IMG/VR virus record: IMGVR_UViG_3300033888_000043
DNA from: an uncultured virus (IMG/VR IMGVR_UViG_3300033888_000043)
Lineage: Duplodnaviria; Heunggongvirae; Uroviricota; Caudoviricetes
Direction: 5' to 3' (one strand)
Length of the DNA: 64,000 nt
Positions 53,174 to 61,226 of the stretch are shown piece by piece. The position numbers and the translations under genes were made by a program. The notes under the pieces were generated by a model. The model saw nothing but the letters and a program-made list of their open reading frames with translations, was not told the DNA's origin and made no database searches. The first letter of the stretch is position 1, and every line of letters starts with the position of its first letter.

Positions 53174-53650
53174 GGTGGGGCCGAGTGGCGGGGTTACTCT
53201 TTTTCGTGTTCGAAGATCCGGCAGTGCTTTTTTCTCCACGTCCAGATCGGTGCAAGAGCCTTCGGGCGACGCCCCGGAATCCGCACGGCCTTCTCGCGGA
53301 AACGCCGCGCATCGGCCAGGAACGCGCGCGCCAGTTTTTCCAGCGTCAGGAGTTCGCTCTCGATGACCGCGCGGCTGAAAGCTGATCGCTGAGTGCTGAG
53401 TGCTTGCTTCATGCGGTTTCGTCCAACACGAAGATCCGCACCAGTTTTCTGTCGCTGAAACAGTCACAAGCCGTGGCAATATACGCCAGGCGGTCGTCAT
53501 CCAGCACCACGTCCACCACGGGATAGAGCTTGCGAAGATCCACGAGCTTTTCCGTTGATATCCGGTGGAGCGGGACCGTATCCGCTTTTGGCCTGGCGCG
53601 AGGTGCGGGGGCGCTCCGTAGCGCGGTCGCAAGTTCGATGGCTTCTGGGC

Positions 53651-54151
53651 TCATGCTGCTTTCTTCAATTCCAGCCAGTCCACATCCACCTCGGCCGAAA
53701 CCGACTTGCCGATGCCTGCCACGTTAACCACAATCCGGTTATGCTTGCCGACTCTGACCACTACGCCGTAGACGCCCGCCATGGGGCCATAGCGGATGTG
53801 CACGTTGGTGCCGCTGGCAAGCTGCTCGGCGGTAATGCCGGTCGCGGATTCCACGCTGGGGGACCGCTCCATGATCCTTACGCTCTCGATGGTCAGGTCG
53901 GGGATGATGGCCGGCTCGCCGTCGGTCTGCAGGATGCGGATGACGTGCGGGTTTGCAATTATGAGCGGGGTGCTCTTGAAGCGCGCGAAGACATAGCCGG
54001 GGAACAGCGCGCGGCGGACAATCTCTTTTTTGCGCCCGTGCCTCACTTCCACCGAACGCGATGGCCAATAACTCTTGGCACCTTGCGCCTCGAGGCGATC
54101 GGCAACCAGGTCTTCGTGGCTGGTGTGGACTTGGAGGACGTACCAGGGCAT
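53651..54151 (-). CDS. NusG-family (RfaH/UpxY/LoaP-like) antiterminator
   Basis: WYVLQV, ALFPGYVFA, KOW motif V.I..GPMAGV.G.V. Confidence 0.9.
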   Translation of the reverse strand: MPWYVLQVHTSHEDLVADRLEAQGAKSYWPSRSVEVRHGRKKEIVRRALFPGYVFARFKSTPLIIANPHVIRILQTDGEPAIIPDLTIESVRIMERSPSVESATGITAEQLASGTNVHIRYGPMAGVYGVVVRVGKHNRIVVNVAGIGKSVSAEVDVDWLELKKAA

Positions 54152-54189
54152 CAGACTGCGACCTCGAGGGGTGCTGGGTTCTGGTTGCT

Positions 54190-54340
54190 GGGTTCTGGCG
54201 CGGGCTTGTGCTCTATCGCCCAGGCGCGCAATGCGTCGGCGCAGACCGAGCACAGGAACTTGTTGGGTTCTGGCGCGGGCTTGTGCTCTATCGCCCAGGC
54301 GCGCAATGCGTCGGCGCAGACCGAGCACAGGAACTTGTTG
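54190..54340. repeat. Two-copy 75-bp tandem repeat within ORF 54151..54477
   Basis: Unit encodes NKFLCSVCADALRAWAIEHKPAPEP twice. Confidence 0.92.
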
Positions 54341-54749
54341 CCGCTGATCGCGCGCCCGCATTCCACCTTCAGGTCCCCGAGTTCCAGGCCGGGGCAGGGA
54401 TGCGACCCTTTGACGGGAGGCTGGCGGAGCCGCGTTTTGGATCCCCAGATCTTCTGCCCGATGTGAAACTGGCCCATTAGGCTTCGACCACCTCGTCTGC
54501 CGGGAAGAGCATGCTGGCCTGATATCCGCGAACCAAGACGCGAACGAGGTATATCGGATCGCCGAGGAGGCGCTGTGTCAAGCTGACTGGCAGGCCGTCA
54601 AGCTGGCTGACCTCGCGTGTGTTCAATCGTAATTGCATCGCGCTTTTAGCTGAAAGCCGAGAACTGAAAGCTGAAAGCTTCTTTTCGGACAGCCTCCGGC
54701 CCAACAGGGTGAAAACCCCGGTGCCAAATTCGGCGGTAAAGTCCTTCGC

Positions 54750-56434: not shown

Positions 56435-56627
56435 AAGCAGCTTTCAGCTTTCAGCACTCAGCTTTCAGCTAAAGCAGCAGAACCTTGCGTAAGTCGTTTT
56501 GCGTGAGTGGAATAGCTTGTGGATATGTGCAATTGGCAGGCGAAGATTAGGCGAAAGTCACCTCATGTATCGACCTAAGTGTATTGGGTTGAATGGATTA
56601 GCGTCTATTTTGGGGGGCGAACAAACG

Positions 56628-56662: not shown

Positions 56663-56765
56663 CTTCGCCTACCCCGATAAACCCGCGCTCGAAGGGGGAT
56701 TTCGAGGCGCTGGGCGTGGGCTTCATAGACGAGAAGATCGTAACGCTCGGCACCCGCGATGTCAA

Positions 56766-57973
56766 GGGCAATAACATACCTAACCGACCGGTACGTTTCC
56801 TGAAGGGCAAAGCCCCGCAGCGCTTCTGCCAAGCGCAAGGACGTTGAGCGCGGCGTTGTAGTCTCTGTCGAGCGATGCTCCGCAGCCGCAAAGGTGCTGC
56901 CGGTCGGCGAGCGTCTTACGAACGTCCGCCCCGCATTGAGAGCATCGAATCGACGTGCCTCTGGGGTTCACTGGAATGGCCCATCGTCCGGCGCTTTCAG
57001 CCTTGTACGATATCTGCCAGATCAGTTCGGCCCATGCCGCGTCGAGGATGGACTTCGCCAGGTTGCTCCGAACCATCCCCCGGATATTGAGCTTTTCAAA
57101 CGCAATGAGATCGTAGTGCTCGACCAGCCACTTCGAGGCATGGTGGCAAAAGTTCCGCCGAGCGTCCCCGGCCCGCTGGTGAGCGCGGCGCAATACTTCG
57201 CGGGCGCGGATGCGATTCTTGGACCGCTTCTGTTTCAGTGCCAGCTTGCGGTTGGCCGCCGCGATGCGCACTTCGTGCTTCCGCGTGAAATGCGGGTTGT
57301 CGATCACCGCGCCGTCGCTCAAGGTTGCGAAATTCGTCAGACCCAGGTCGATGCCAACCGCATTGGAGACGGCGACCTTTGGCGGCGCTTCGCCAAGGTC
57401 GCACACCACGCGCAATTCCCATTTGCCGCCGCACCGCTTGATGGTCGCCTGCTTCGGCTGGCCTTCGACGGGCCGATGAGACTTGAAGCGGATACAGCCG
57501 AGCTTAGGAACCAGAACCGCAGCGTCCTTGAGGCTGGGTTCGTGCCACGCGAAGGAATCGTATCGTGCGCGCGCGCGGAACCTTGGAAACCCCGGCTTCT
57601 CTCCAGCTTTACAGCGGCGGAAGAACGCCTTGAAGGCGCGGTCCACGCGGCGCAGCGGCTCCCGCTGGATATCGACGGCGATGGTGGCGTAGCGCGGGTC
57701 TTGCCGAAGCTGGGTCAGCTCGCCGCACTGGTCCTCGTAGGTGATGCTCTTGTGGCACAGCTTCCATGCGTCGCGGCGCTCCTGGAGGGCGGCGTTGTAC
57801 GTTTCCGCCGAGTCCACCAGGATGCCGGTAAGCGCCATCCGCTGTTCCGCGTTGGGCTTCAGCCGCATTGTAAACGTGCGATGCACCTAGTTCTATTGTG
57901 CGCTGGAGCACCTGTATTTACTAGGGCTGGGCGTACTCCGGAACGTACCGGTCGGTTAGGTATGTTATTGCCC
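56766..57973 (-). mobile_element. tnpB-only element bounded by perfect 32-bp inverted repeats
   Basis: GGGCAATAACATACCTAACCGACCGGTACGTT at 56766-56797 and its exact reverse complement at 57942-57973. Confidence 0.85.
56780..57886 (-). CDS. tnpB: RNA-guided endonuclease TnpB
   Basis: YNAAL.ER, KPGFPRFR, RuvC residues in GIDLG, FEKL and DRDYNAA intact, Zn finger CSQC..CGC. Confidence 0.95.
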   Translation of the reverse strand: MHRTFTMRLKPNAEQRMALTGILVDSAETYNAALQERRDAWKLCHKSITYEDQCGELTQLRQDPRYATIAVDIQREPLRRVDRAFKAFFRRCKAGEKPGFPRFRARARYDSFAWHEPSLKDAAVLVPKLGCIRFKSHRPVEGQPKQATIKRCGGKWELRVVCDLGEAPPKVAVSNAVGIDLGLTNFATLSDGAVIDNPHFTRKHEVRIAAANRKLALKQKRSKNRIRAREVLRRAHQRAGDARRNFCHHASKWLVEHYDLIAFEKLNIRGMVRSNLAKSILDAAWAELIWQISYKAESAGRWAIPVNPRGTSIRCSQCGADVRKTLADRQHLCGCGASLDRDYNAALNVLALGRSAAGLCPSGNVPVG

Positions 57974-57974
57974 A

Positions 57975-58559
57975 TCAAACCGTGCGCTCCGTTTCCAGCC
58001 GGCGCGGCCGGTACACGCGTCGCACGTGCCCGCGCGGCCGGAGCCGATCGAGCGCGCGCGACTTGCGCAGCCGGAACTGGGTTTCGGTCAGGCCCAGGTC
58101 TTGCCAGATTTCCTTTGCGGTATCGCCCAGTTGGTAGAACCGGGTGATGATGGCCAGGTCCGCGCCCTTGAGTTTGCCCAGCTTGCGATCGATAGCCTGG
58201 TCTTTCTCGGCCGCGAGTAACACCCGCTCCGGGTCGCGCCGGTCGGCGGGCTCCCTGATCTGCCGGACCTCGCGCTGGCGCACGCGCTCCTCGATCTCAC
58301 CGGCCACCATGCGCCGGACGATGGACTGGACGTATCCCATCAGGCACTCTGGATTGCGCAACTCCCCGCGGTGGATGGCGCCAACGGTCGCCACGAAGGC
58401 GTCATGCGTAAAGTCCAGGGCGGCCTGCCAACCCAGCCGGCGTCCAAGGTAGACGTGCACACCGCGCGCGAAACAGCGGCGGTACAACTCTTCCATGCCG
58501 GAAGGGTCGTCGGCGACGATGCGCGCCACTACTTCGGGCCATGAGGGACAATCGGTCAT
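57975..58559 (-). CDS. ECF-type sigma-70 factor
   Basis: MEELY..F..GV..YL.RRLG...D..HD.F (region 2); RFY..G.T.KEI..DLGLTETQFRLRKSRA (region 4). Confidence 0.85.
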   Translation of the reverse strand: MTDCPSWPEVVARIVADDPSGMEELYRRCFARGVHVYLGRRLGWQAALDFTHDAFVATVGAIHRGELRNPECLMGYVQSIVRRMVAGEIEERVRQREVRQIREPADRRDPERVLLAAEKDQAIDRKLGKLKGADLAIITRFYQLGDTAKEIWQDLGLTETQFRLRKSRALDRLRPRGHVRRVYRPRRLETERTV

Positions 58560-58572
58560 GTCTCGGAAGTCT

Positions 58573-58610
58573 ATTGTAATTGACATTTCCGCCCGGAAGT
58601 CAATTATAAT
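58573..58610. promoter_or_regulatory. Dyad-symmetric overlapping divergent promoter candidate
   Basis: Plus strand TTGACA-N19-TATAAT (58580-58610); minus strand TTGACT-N19-TACAAT; dyad TAATTGAC..TTCC-GCCC-GGAA-GTCAATTA. Confidence 0.55.
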
Positions 58611-58899
58611 CAACGACCCCGCGATCCCGTTCGGAATGAGGCCGCTTCAATGCGTTACTGCACAGATGGGCAGTCATGGGAAAAATGAAGCCCGGATACT
58701 ATAAGACAGCCTGATTCTGTAACGATGCTTGGGTAGTGTAACGCAATACTGCTGCGAGCATGGGCCAAATAGTACTTGAGTGGCGGCCTGCCGCGCGGTA
58801 TGCTGACATCGGTATTCGAGCGCCGGTCACTGCCGGTCTCACCCCCTTGAGATCCGGGCACCACCTTGGCCGGCCCTCGACGCTCTGTGGTGGAGTGAA

Positions 58900-60186
58900 A
58901 TGGAGAAGCCCCCACAATCAGCGACAGGCAGACGCGGCGACGCGGCGACGCGGCGACGCACGTATGGCTCGCTGTTTAGCGGTATCGGCGGCCTGGATTT
59001 AGGCTTCGACCGCGCCGGCTTCGAGTGCCGCTTCCAAATCGAGATCGACCCATTCTGCCACGAGATTCTTGAGAAGCACTGGCCCAAGGTTCCCAAACAT
59101 CATGACATCCGCGTTGCTACCGCTGCCGTTCTTTCACCCGTCGATGTGCTCGTTGGCGGCTTCCCATGCCAGGACGTTTCCCAGGCCGGAAAGCGAGTTG
59201 GAATTGAAGGATCTCGCACGGGCCTTTGGTCTGAGTTCGCCCGAATTATTGGCGAGCTTCGACCCCGTTTCGTGGTCGCTGAGAACGTCCCAGGGCTCCT
59301 TACTTCAAGAGGAGCAATGGGGCGAGTGCTTGGAGACCTTGCCCGACTCGGGTATGTGGGATGCTGGCGCTGTCTACGAGCTTCGGAGTTCGGAGCTTCC
59401 CATATTCGAAAGCGCGTCTTCATTGTGGCCTACCGCAGTGGCGAAAGACGACGGGAAGACGCCAGCGGCGCACTTGGCGATGAAACAGCGTATGGGCGAG
59501 CGCGACGGCACAGGCGCGAACCGGACGGCGATAACGAGCCTTGCGGTGAAGGTGCAACAGTGGCCAACTCCACGCGAGGCAGAGCGCTGCCAGTACAACA
59601 GCCACGACGACTACGAGGCGCTGAGCCTGCGAGTGCAGAATTGGCCCACTGCCCGCCAGGAAGACGGCGAGAGTTGCGGGAACCATCCGGGAGTGGTGGA
59701 CTCGCTAACGGGAGCAACGAAGTTGTGGTTCCCGACACCAGCGAGCAGGGATTACCGCACTCCAAACAAGCTGAGCTATCAGGACCGCTCGGGAACAACG
59801 AAGGGCGAGCAGCTTCAGAACTTCGTGGAGCACAGCTTCCCCGCTTCGCTCCAGGCCCCTCAGATCCAAGATGGCCAGCCATCCTCAGAGAGCGCCCCGA
59901 CCTCGCGCCAGCGCTGGGCTACCCCGACCGACAGCATGGCAACCATGCAGGATCAGGAGCAGGCGCAGACAGCGGGCAACAGCCCGGACCGCCCAAAGTA
60001 CGGGAGCCTGGAGAAACGGCGGCTCAATCCAAGATTTGTCTGCTGGCTGATGGGCTTCCCGCTGGGCTGGACAGAGCGATGCAAGACCGCACCAAGCGAC
60101 TGAGCCGGCTGGGTAACGCGGTGGTGCCAGACTGTAGTGAGTGGATCGCGCGCCGGCTTGCCGAATTCGACGAGGCGCACGCATGA
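58900..60186 (+). CDS. DNA (cytosine-5) methyltransferase, large polypeptide
   Basis: SLFSGIGG (I), GGFPCQD (IV), ENV (VI), RKRVF (VIII), LGNAVVP (X); motif IX not seen in this frame. Confidence 0.92.
   Translation: MEKPPQSATGRRGDAATRRRTYGSLFSGIGGLDLGFDRAGFECRFQIEIDPFCHEILEKHWPKVPKHHDIRVATAAVLSPVDVLVGGFPCQDVSQAGKRVGIEGSRTGLWSEFARIIGELRPRFVVAENVPGLLTSRGAMGRVLGDLARLGYVGCWRCLRASEFGASHIRKRVFIVAYRSGERRREDASGALGDETAYGRARRHRREPDGDNEPCGEGATVANSTRGRALPVQQPRRLRGAEPASAELAHCPPGRRRELREPSGSGGLANGSNEVVVPDTSEQGLPHSKQAELSGPLGNNEGRAASELRGAQLPRFAPGPSDPRWPAILRERPDLAPALGYPDRQHGNHAGSGAGADSGQQPGPPKVREPGETAAQSKICLLADGLPAGLDRAMQDRTKRLSRLGNAVVPDCSEWIARRLAEFDEAHA
59102..60103 (+). CDS. Nested alternative-frame MTase small subunit carrying motif IX (start uncertain)
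   Basis: Open for more than 330 codons inside the MTase; repeated WPT(P/A) units; RRLNPRFVCWLMGFPLGWT. Confidence 0.8.
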   Translation: MTSALLPLPFFHPSMCSLAASHARTFPRPESELELKDLARAFGLSSPELLASFDPVSWSLRTSQGSLLQEEQWGECLETLPDSGMWDAGAVYELRSSELPIFESASSLWPTAVAKDDGKTPAAHLAMKQRMGERDGTGANRTAITSLAVKVQQWPTPREAERCQYNSHDDYEALSLRVQNWPTARQEDGESCGNHPGVVDSLTGATKLWFPTPASRDYRTPNKLSYQDRSGTTKGEQLQNFVEHSFPASLQAPQIQDGQPSSESAPTSRQRWATPTDSMATMQDQEQAQTAGNSPDRPKYGSLEKRRLNPRFVCWLMGFPLGWTERCKTAPSD

Positions 60187-60287
60187 ACGCAGCTACGCCC
60201 GTGATTGGGGTCGCTGCAGGTGAAAGCCGCGGACGGTCGCCTCCGGGATAACTACCTTAGCGGTCGCCGTCGATCAAATCTTGGCAG

Positions 60288-61226
60288 GTGAGACTGACGG
60301 CAAACAAGCGCAAACACTTAGCGCCGGAGGCACGGCTTCCCCTTCATTTTCGCAAGCCTACCCCTGAATCGCAAGTGCTCGCGTTTCAATTTCTTGAATT
60401 TCAGGAGAAAAGCTTGCGCTGGACGCCCCAAGCCATCACTAAATTGCGCGTGCTCTATCCGCACCATCCCACCTGGGCCGTGGCGGAAGTGCTGAAGCGG
60501 TCGTTCCCCTCAGTGCGAACAAAGGCAAAATTGTTGGGACTTCGCAAGCCCGGGTACCAGCCCTGGTCCACCGTAGAACTCGATCTCCTGCGCAAGCTGT
60601 ACGCCGATCACTCGACGGCAGAGATTGCGGCGCTCACCGGCCGCAGCGCCGGCAAGGTTTACCAAGCCGCGGCGCGCCTGGGGCTGCAAAAGAGCGCGGA
60701 GTATTTGGCATCGGCCGAAGGGCCGAACTCGCACAAGCACGCCAACGGCGGATCTTTCCGGGCCGGCCTGGTGCCGTGGAACAAGGGCAAGCGCATGCCC
60801 GGTTATGCCCTCGGACGCATGGCCGAGACGCAATTCAAGCCGGGGCAACTCAACGGCCGCGCCGCGCAACTGCACAAGCCGGTGGGCGCCATCGTAGCCG
60901 ACCCCGAAGGCTACCTGCGCATCAAGATCCGGGAGCGGCGCCCCGGCGACGGCTGCTCCGGATGGCACAAGGATGTCTGGCCGCTGGTGCACTGGCGCGT
61001 CTGGCAGCAGCACCATGGCCCGATCCCCGCGGGACACAAGGTTGTGTTCCGTGACTATAACCGGGCCCATTGCGAAATCGAAAACCTGGAGCTGATAACG
61101 GACGGAGAGATGATGCTCCGCAACAGCATCCATAACCTGCCCCCCGAGCTGAAGCAGGTAATTACGCTCAACGGGGCGCTGAAACGCAGACTAAGGAGAC
61201 TTTGTGGCAAAGAACACGTTGCGTGA
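60288..61226 (+). CDS. HNH endonuclease-domain protein (probable start TTG ~60413)
   Basis: Two W(T/S)..L..LY repeats, PWNKG, ETQFKPG, H..VW..HHGPIP.GH.V.F.D.NR..C.IENLEL. Confidence 0.85.
   Translation: MRLTANKRKHLAPEARLPLHFRKPTPESQVLAFQFLEFQEKSLRWTPQAITKLRVLYPHHPTWAVAEVLKRSFPSVRTKAKLLGLRKPGYQPWSTVELDLLRKLYADHSTAEIAALTGRSAGKVYQAAARLGLQKSAEYLASAEGPNSHKHANGGSFRAGLVPWNKGKRMPGYALGRMAETQFKPGQLNGRAAQLHKPVGAIVADPEGYLRIKIRERRPGDGCSGWHKDVWPLVHWRVWQQHHGPIPAGHKVVFRDYNRAHCEIENLELITDGEMMLRNSIHNLPPELKQVITLNGALKRRLRRLCGKEHVA

Follow-up and report, generated by a model that had tools for sequence, protein, structure and literature searches.

Altae-Tran et al. (2023, PNAS, PMC10691335) describe, in the text of their survey, six DDE-associated TnpB branches, all of which have inverted terminal repeats, as well as solo TnpBs that lie between near-identical ends and are proposed to be moved by transposases acting in trans. 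The DDE family named in that text is IS630, and IS1595 appears only in the profile list of the Supporting Information; the text of a 2026 review (PMC13565253) lists ISL2, IS630, and IS1031, and gives TTGAT as the target of ISDra2. According to the text of Yoon et al. (2023, NAR, PMC10711439), Fanzor guide scaffolds include terminal inverted repeats (TIRs) as well as target site duplications (TSDs). Here we analyze a 64,000-nucleotide stretch of DNA from an uncultured virus (IMG/VR record IMGVR_UViG_3300033888_000043), hereafter the window, in which a tnpB gene is the sole credible gene of a 1208-bp unit delimited by a perfect 32-bp inverted repeat. This unit is probably a nonautonomous cassette of the IS1595 family whose sole cargo is a working-looking TnpB/omegaRNA module. 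A preliminary description of the locus, made from the sequence alone, had offered it as an undescribed system; this claim does not stand, because DDE-linked and solo TnpBs between inverted ends are already present in the text of Altae-Tran et al. (PMC10691335). The arrangement has been known in principle since 2023, and the partner family IS1595 is not found named in print for TnpB. This last statement covers titles and abstracts, among which no IS1595-TnpB link was found; Fig. 4 and Additional Files 10-11 of Altae-Tran et al. lie outside that coverage and may hold one.

The DDE-associated TnpBs resemble the present locus in that, in the published text (PMC10691335), tnpB lies within inverted terminal repeats with its 3' end no more than 250 bp from the element end; the DDE-5 branch, described there by a 'TA motif 8 bp upstream', could relate to the cassette family discussed here. 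ISDra2 TnpB and its omegaRNA, from the IS200/IS605 family, share with the window homology over the full length of the protein, a guide RNA derived from the 3' end of tnpB and the right end of the element (predicted here), a pseudoknot with the last scaffold bases (likewise predicted), and TTGAT at the left flank. However, the ends of ISDra2 are asymmetric hairpins, and that element comes with a Y1 TnpA and without a duplication, whereas the window element has 32-bp inverted repeats of the IS1595 type. Mobile insertion cassettes carry passenger genes between insertion sequence ends without a transposase; compared with those of IS1595, the passenger here is an RNA-guided nuclease whose RNA would make use of the transposon end. 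Fanzor1 and Fanzor2*, as presented in the text of Yoon et al. (PMC10711439), are likewise nuclease-only, nonautonomous TIR/TSD elements with the TIR in the scaffold, and one copy is virus-borne. They differ in that the present locus is prokaryotic, encodes a typical short TnpB, and appears to keep the pseudoknot, whereas Fanzor1 reRNAs are reported in that text to be without one (PMC10711439).

The tnpB cassette and the ends of related elements

The window is a temperate tailed phage, in which profile searches identify a portal, a large terminase, a major head protein, and an integrase. The left arm of the terminal inverted repeat lies at 57942..57973 (minus strand), upstream of tnpB on the tnpB strand, and is a perfect 32-bp match to the right arm at 56766..56797 (minus strand). 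The repeat has two matches in the whole window at up to three mismatches and none in 100 shuffles. The tnpB gene (56780..57886, minus strand) runs into the right repeat, which holds its last five codons and its stop codon (56782-56780) as well as hairpin C and the predicted 3' strand of the pseudoknot. The preliminary description had reported perfect 32-bp repeats around a 1208-bp unit containing only tnpB, with the stop codon inside one repeat, and repeat, open reading frame (ORF), and profile searches confirm each of these points. It had also reported that the unit contains no transposase: among the ORFs and in the profile search of the unit no transposase gene was found, and a DDE transposase with an N-terminal zinc ribbon is absent. 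Because it lacks a DDE transposase, the unit is nonautonomous.

The encoded protein comprises 368 amino acids in an open frame with a GTG start. It matches OrfB_IS605 (PF01385), Cas12f1-like_TNB (PF07282), and HTH_OrfB_IS605 (PF12323) in Pfam and guided_TnpB (NF040570) in NCBIfam, the latter with 236.8 bits against a cut-off of 100, and over its full length it matches the solved ISDra2 TnpB chains 8bf8, 8exa, and 8h1j (E ~2e-47). Its protein relatives number in the thousands, the nearest of them, other than itself, at 71% identity. Residues D180, E264, and D342, which from their motif context we take to be the RuvC triad, and C315, C318, C333, and C335, presumably a zinc finger, are invariant in 34 aligned relatives. 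With an open frame and these residues conserved, the protein is likely catalytically intact, as the preliminary description had held, and the TnpB/omegaRNA module looks to be in working order.

DNA was available for related loci from species genomes (19) and from metagenomes (80). The counts given below use the 43 loci of the clade with 52-100% identity. Twelve partial matches (L091, L108, L111, L112, L120-L123, L135, L144, L148, and L153) were dropped before counting, as were L075 (the window's own contig), L097 and L098 (identical to L013), and L103 (identical to L014). The named close relatives, with 52-71% identity, are Acidobacteriota (Acidobacteriaceae, Terriglobia, Bryobacterales, and Solibacteraceae), and a group with ~40% identity comes from Chloroflexota/Ktedonobacter. 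The tnpB frames are open in 40 of the 43 loci. A 13-nt end motif, allowing up to three mismatches, occurs within 70 nt after tnpB in 32 of the 43 and, in inverted orientation, within 300 nt upstream of tnpB in 23. The preliminary description had also named the opposite outcome, in which close homologs have ordinary ends and the repeat is independent of the gene; the relatives instead carry ends of the same kind. No repeats of this kind were found at the tnpB loci examined in the ~40% Chloroflexota clade. One locus of that clade, seen three times (L141, L146, and L154), has its tnpB inside a perfect 20-bp inverted repeat of unrelated sequence, with the arms 1340 bp apart.

A quick version of the tree was computed, in which five rows with stops were skipped and the broken loci L015, L024, and L116 were left out. 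All 36 close-clade rows lie on one side of a branch with 100% support, apart from the ~40% clade, and loci having ends plus duplication, ends without duplication, or the right end only are intermixed within the close clade. Based on this interspersion, the end architecture looks ancestral to the close clade and seems to decay often. About 10 relatives keep the right end with the left end truncated or gone, a pattern that fits selection on RNA. L113 and L114 represent the same tnpB element in two different contexts; they have a common right boundary, which is the usual end, and no recognizable left repeat. A subclade nested among the close relatives (L082, L083, and L085) has different element ends, and in L083 a ~19-29 nt inverted repeat of another sequence lies right at the gene borders.

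The preliminary description had guessed at an IS1595-like DDE transposase as the partner, and this fits the relatives' genomes, where IS1595 transposases occur behind ends of the same kind. The IS1595-family DDE domain (PF12762) is present in all five genomes holding relatives, with 23 matches in total, and two of the IS1595 copies have both ends of this kind together with 8-bp duplications. In the genome that contains L024, an intact transposase of 325 amino acids (NF033547, 184 bits; Pfam Zn_ribbon_IS1595 and DDE_Tnp_IS1595) begins ~50 nt inside such an end. The same end encloses a 3.3-kb element whose transposase is decayed and which also carries passenger ORFs. A 627-bp cassette of unrelated small ORFs, in the genome that contains L015, is bounded by perfect 25-bp ends of this kind and flanked by a perfect 8-bp duplication. 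IS1595-family elements with ISNwi1-like ends start with GG..AT-rich sequence, given in ISfinder for the ISNwi1 group as ggnnatTAT, and make 8-bp duplications, a description that the present data fit. Across the initial 22 nt, 28 tnpB-cassette ends have a mean identity of 66% to eight IS1595 ends (224 pairs; maximum, 91%), compared with 25% for random 22-mers of the same loci. The window end, read from its second G, is 55-73% identical over its first 22 nt to transposase-bearing IS1595 ends. Judged by this likeness, the repeats bounding tnpB are best described as true transposon ends of the IS1595 type.

Target duplications point in the same direction in part of the sample. Twenty-two elements with both ends defined, including the window, were scored for 8-bp direct repeats at their flanks; these agree at 8/8 positions in six elements, at 7/8 in one, and at 6/8 in one, and control windows give 4-6 matches at most. 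The view of the preliminary description that the unit is a nonautonomous TIR element with TnpB as cargo is thus borne out by the relatives, which have the same kind of ends and, in six of 22 cases, perfect 8-bp duplications. Its reading of the window's own flanks fared less well. On the tnpB strand the element is preceded by TTGAT and followed by TTGAC, exactly as stated, but the 5-bp TSD seen in these letters is not retained, since the relatives give 8-bp duplications and TTGAC starts a sigma-70 promoter-like sequence, TTGACA-17-TACGAT (56737..56765, minus strand), which begins at the first flank base. The promoter-like site agrees with the consensus at 10 of 12 positions, and the scan found one such site where 0.4 would be expected.

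The bases beyond the ends show a further pattern. In the left flanks of the relatives (n=24), G occupies position -9 in 18 and A occupies -8 in 17, while A or T is found at -7 in 22 and at -6 in 23, and the sequence is AT-rich up to the element end; no common 5-nt motif is found in the last five bases of these immediate left flanks. Right flanks (n=34) have A at +1 in 23 and are mildly AT-rich from +1 to +3. In 15 duplication-less elements (for example L012, L088, L109, and L110), the right flank agrees with the left 8-mer at its first 1-5 bases only, one being a C/C case, as though everything but the innermost few bases of the right-hand copy had been replaced. We also searched 120 nt of the right flank for the left 8-mer, and vice versa, and found nothing at 7/8 or better. 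Broken tnpB genes occur in two of seven cases with a duplication and in one of 16 without, and no association was found.

A predicted guide-RNA scaffold at the right end

We aligned 36 right-end regions and derived an RNAalifold consensus. The predicted 3' scaffold of the omegaRNA (56798..56836, minus strand) consists of stem A (56836-56820, with its loop at 56830-56826), stem B (56816-56805), and a linker (56804-56798). These two hairpins, located just upstream of the right repeat, show many two-sided changes: in stem A five of six pairs change on both sides, and the closing pair is CG in 20 sequences, GC in 12, and UA in three. The last bases of the element complement the loop of stem A, which has five bases; in the window the complementary stretch is 56770-56767, the predicted 3' strand of the pseudoknot. 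Taking the structure as a whole, 95.1% of cells are paired, compared with 83.6% in shuffles, and none of 500 shuffles reaches any of the measures; the pseudoknot helix is 90% paired across the alignment. Furthermore, an 8-bp hairpin, 56797-56790 with 56780-56773, forms within the window's right repeat in the minimum free energy fold. A search of Rfam returned chance-level matches only.

Loop and end change together, as the classes GGGA/TCCC, GGCA/TGCC, and GGTA/TACC. The GGGA/TCCC class contains 33 loci, and in 28 of them the defined boundary falls exactly where the loop complement stops, a fit that is partly circular in that the boundary was defined by that motif. The GGCA/TGCC class is represented by the window, one base in from the end, and the GGTA/TACC class by two of the three loci of the nested subclade with different ends mentioned above (loop GGTAG). 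The preliminary description had proposed the repeat as the 3' end of the guide scaffold; with conserved stems and a pseudoknot that reaches the element's last bases, the right repeat is indeed predicted to be the 3' part of the omegaRNA scaffold.

As the scaffold ends at the element's last bases, the predicted guide is the flank from 56765 downward (56746..56765, minus strand), immediately beyond the right repeat on its 3' side. A single RNA-library contig of 151 nt, reaching from 56738 to 56888, takes in the scaffold and 28 nt of flank and offers a weak hint only; parts of the unit are covered by RNA-library contigs, but these reveal neither strand nor ends and may result from DNA carry-over. 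The scaffold stems are found only at the 3' end of tnpB, and the left repeat therefore cannot alone yield a second guide. The earlier suggestion that symmetric ends could give two guides, or reprogram the guide by inversion, is accordingly not supported; nor was a strand-changing joint found in the contigs of two DNA and two RNA runs, although contigs alone prove nothing on this point.

Proposed mobility of the cassette and alternative explanations

If the unit is a nonautonomous IS1595-family cassette, an IS1595-type DDE transposase supplied from elsewhere, by the host or another element, would bind both inverted ends and move the cassette by cut-and-paste, normally leaving an 8-bp duplication. 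The conservation of structure suggests that the omegaRNA would extend from the 3' end of tnpB across the right repeat and on into the flank; the right repeat would contribute a hairpin strand and, through its terminal 4-5 bases, the pseudoknot's 3' strand, and ~16-20 nt of phage DNA just past the repeat would serve as the guide. TTGAT at the left end (57974..57978, minus strand), directly 5' of the left repeat and overlapping the stop codon of the upstream sigma-like gene, is a candidate target-adjacent motif (TAM), as it is for ISDra2. In a cassette-free copy of the phage, TTGAT would stand beside sequence matching the guide, and the site may be cut by analogy to IS605-type TnpB, for which a role in element retention was reportedly described by Meers in 2023. 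Repair from a cassette-bearing copy would then retain or spread the element, as for a homing endonuclease.

Several results weigh against this interpretation. Fourteen of the 22 scored elements, including the window, have no duplication, and the window's own two 8-mers agree at only 3/8 positions. The window contains neither an IS1595 transposase nor a further copy of the repeat, and its 26-nt end, at up to three mismatches, was not found in 401 sampled Acidobacteriota genomes. Where transposase-bearing and tnpB ends occur in one genome, they are similar, not identical. Each of the five relatives' genomes has one copy of the tnpB cassette, and two of these copies are broken, which lends no support to recent mobility. 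As for the RNA, four of the five pseudoknot pairs hardly vary (the first four, within the main class), and for the key change on both sides, that of the third pair, the evidence is the window plus two of three loci of one small subclade. The fold of the window sequence by itself is no more stable than shuffles (z = 0.36), and the case for the scaffold therefore rests on sequence comparison.

The preliminary description had called for a search for siblings, empty sites, and an autonomous partner. The first and the last are answered in part by the related ends and IS1595 transposases in the relatives; an empty site and a partner for this phage were not found. Exact searches of viral contigs with the repeat, both flanks, and the sigma-like protein led only to another record of the same phage, a 32.9-kb IMG/VR record with 99.97% identity over the region compared, and the locus lies outside the part covered by the nearest virus record (G001). 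Fourteen DNA runs labelled peat metagenomes each contain at least 90% of the stretch's sampled words, and three of them may be the source sample. Contigs of two DNA and two RNA runs contain no joint that skips the element, although contigs cannot show rare variants. In two runs (X12 and X14), the only part of the window that contigs share is 56766-56813, comprising the right repeat and 16 nt more, from which they differ by one inserted base and two changes; one contig of these runs leaves the left repeat at 57973 into 157 nt unlike the window. These contigs hint that the same samples contain a sibling element or a second context.

In a stronger version of the IS1595-cassette interpretation, which seems doubtful, the RNA-guided nuclease would be coupled mechanistically to the cut-and-paste ends and not just co-resident with them. 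Under coupling, the IS1595 tip must suit both the transposase and the omegaRNA pseudoknot, and the two would therefore co-evolve; three classes of loop and end are seen. In two thirds of the elements the left flank is target-like (an AT-rich 8-mer preceded by G at -9), but the right flank has in common with that 8-mer only its first 1-5 bases. This would suggest either that the sequence adjoining the right end is rewritten by TnpB activity or repair, amounting to guide turnover, or that elements are selected for their orientation at insertion with respect to a TAM-like motif. If coupling were real, the cassette in a phage would amount to a programmable homing drive against cassette-free co-infecting genomes.

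An IS200/IS605-type (IS1341-like) solo-tnpB element, moved by a Y1 TnpA in trans and inserting 3' of TTGAT without duplication, is an improbable alternative, in which the inverted repeat would have arisen by copying of the omegaRNA end to the left and the likeness to IS1595 would be secondary. TTGAT does adjoin the left end, but the relatives' immediate left flanks have no 5-nt motif in common. Similarly, Y1_Tnp matches occur in all five relatives' genomes, yet no Y1 gene lies beside any inspected locus in the part of the flanks that was scanned for one. The lack of a duplication in the window and in most of the scored elements agrees with this alternative, whereas the six perfect 8-bp duplications do not: the family is without terminal inverted repeats or duplications in the text of the review cited above (PMC13565253), and the window has a perfect 32-bp repeat. 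The nearest solved relative is ISDra2 TnpB, and the ~10 relatives with a right end and a truncated or missing left end would also be accommodated, but the ends match IS1595 ends far above the control.

It is also rather unlikely that the cassette is immobile and fixed in the phage, with the repeats as relics and TnpB kept for the phage's own use, for example in cutting competing phages or host DNA or in binding at the adjacent promoter. The 40 open frames among 43 loci indicate selection on the protein, the guide region coincides with the promoter-like site, and the relatives are single-copy in their genomes, all of which would suit such a role; the perfect 32-bp repeat, however, argues for recent insertion or maintained ends. 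The presence of the stretch in 14 DNA runs and the lack of an element-skipping joint in four runs are consistent with fixation, but, as contigs miss rare variants, the absence of an empty site proves nothing. Moreover, this alternative concerns present mobility and does not conflict with an origin as an IS1595 cassette.

Finally, an independent dispersed repeat that flanks tnpB by chance is hardly credible, as nothing beyond the single-copy state in the window favors it, whereas only two copies of the repeat occur in the window, the repeat overlaps the tnpB stop codon and the conserved scaffold, and dozens of diverged relatives have the same architecture.

Surroundings of the cassette and implications

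A sigma-70/extracytoplasmic function (ECF)-like gene (57975..58613, minus strand), with weak NCBIfam and PHROG matches below cut-off, lies outside the element on the tnpB strand and stops one base short of the cassette. Sigma-factor-linked TnpBs are described in the text of Altae-Tran et al. (2023, PMC10691335); here the adjacency is probably due to chance, TnpB being enclosed by its own ends. A long plus-strand ORF (56894..58147) is not taken for a gene, as it lies antisense to tnpB where the DNA is rich in G+C. A C-5 cytosine DNA methylase, of which only the N-terminal half was matched, and an HNH endonuclease gene adjoin the cassette (58900-61226), and these surroundings are a region rich in selfish or defense-type genes.

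Two further repeats were noted in the window. Just downstream of the integrase gene (53650-54470), overlapping ORF translations contain a tandemly duplicated stretch of ~25 residues. A terminator-like palindromic repeat of ~35-40 nt occurs at 56435-56473 and 54645-54683 and in many copies in the nearest virus record, G001. In the peat runs this palindrome reaches a very high summed depth of 208-669 and many different loose ends on both sides, in RNA libraries too, and it appears to be a dispersed repeat common to many peat genomes.

As an IS1595-type cassette, the unit would represent an RNA-guided nuclease riding a cut-and-paste transposon in bacteria and phages, a route earlier documented mainly for Fanzors and a few bacterial DDE families. 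It also brings together a compact, apparently intact TnpB, a scaffold whose end is defined, a predicted guide, and a candidate TAM. The transposon tip would be used twice, as a site for the transposase and as a strand of the RNA pseudoknot, so that two mobile-element functions would share one constraint, and the loss of the right-hand duplication may bear on guide turnover.

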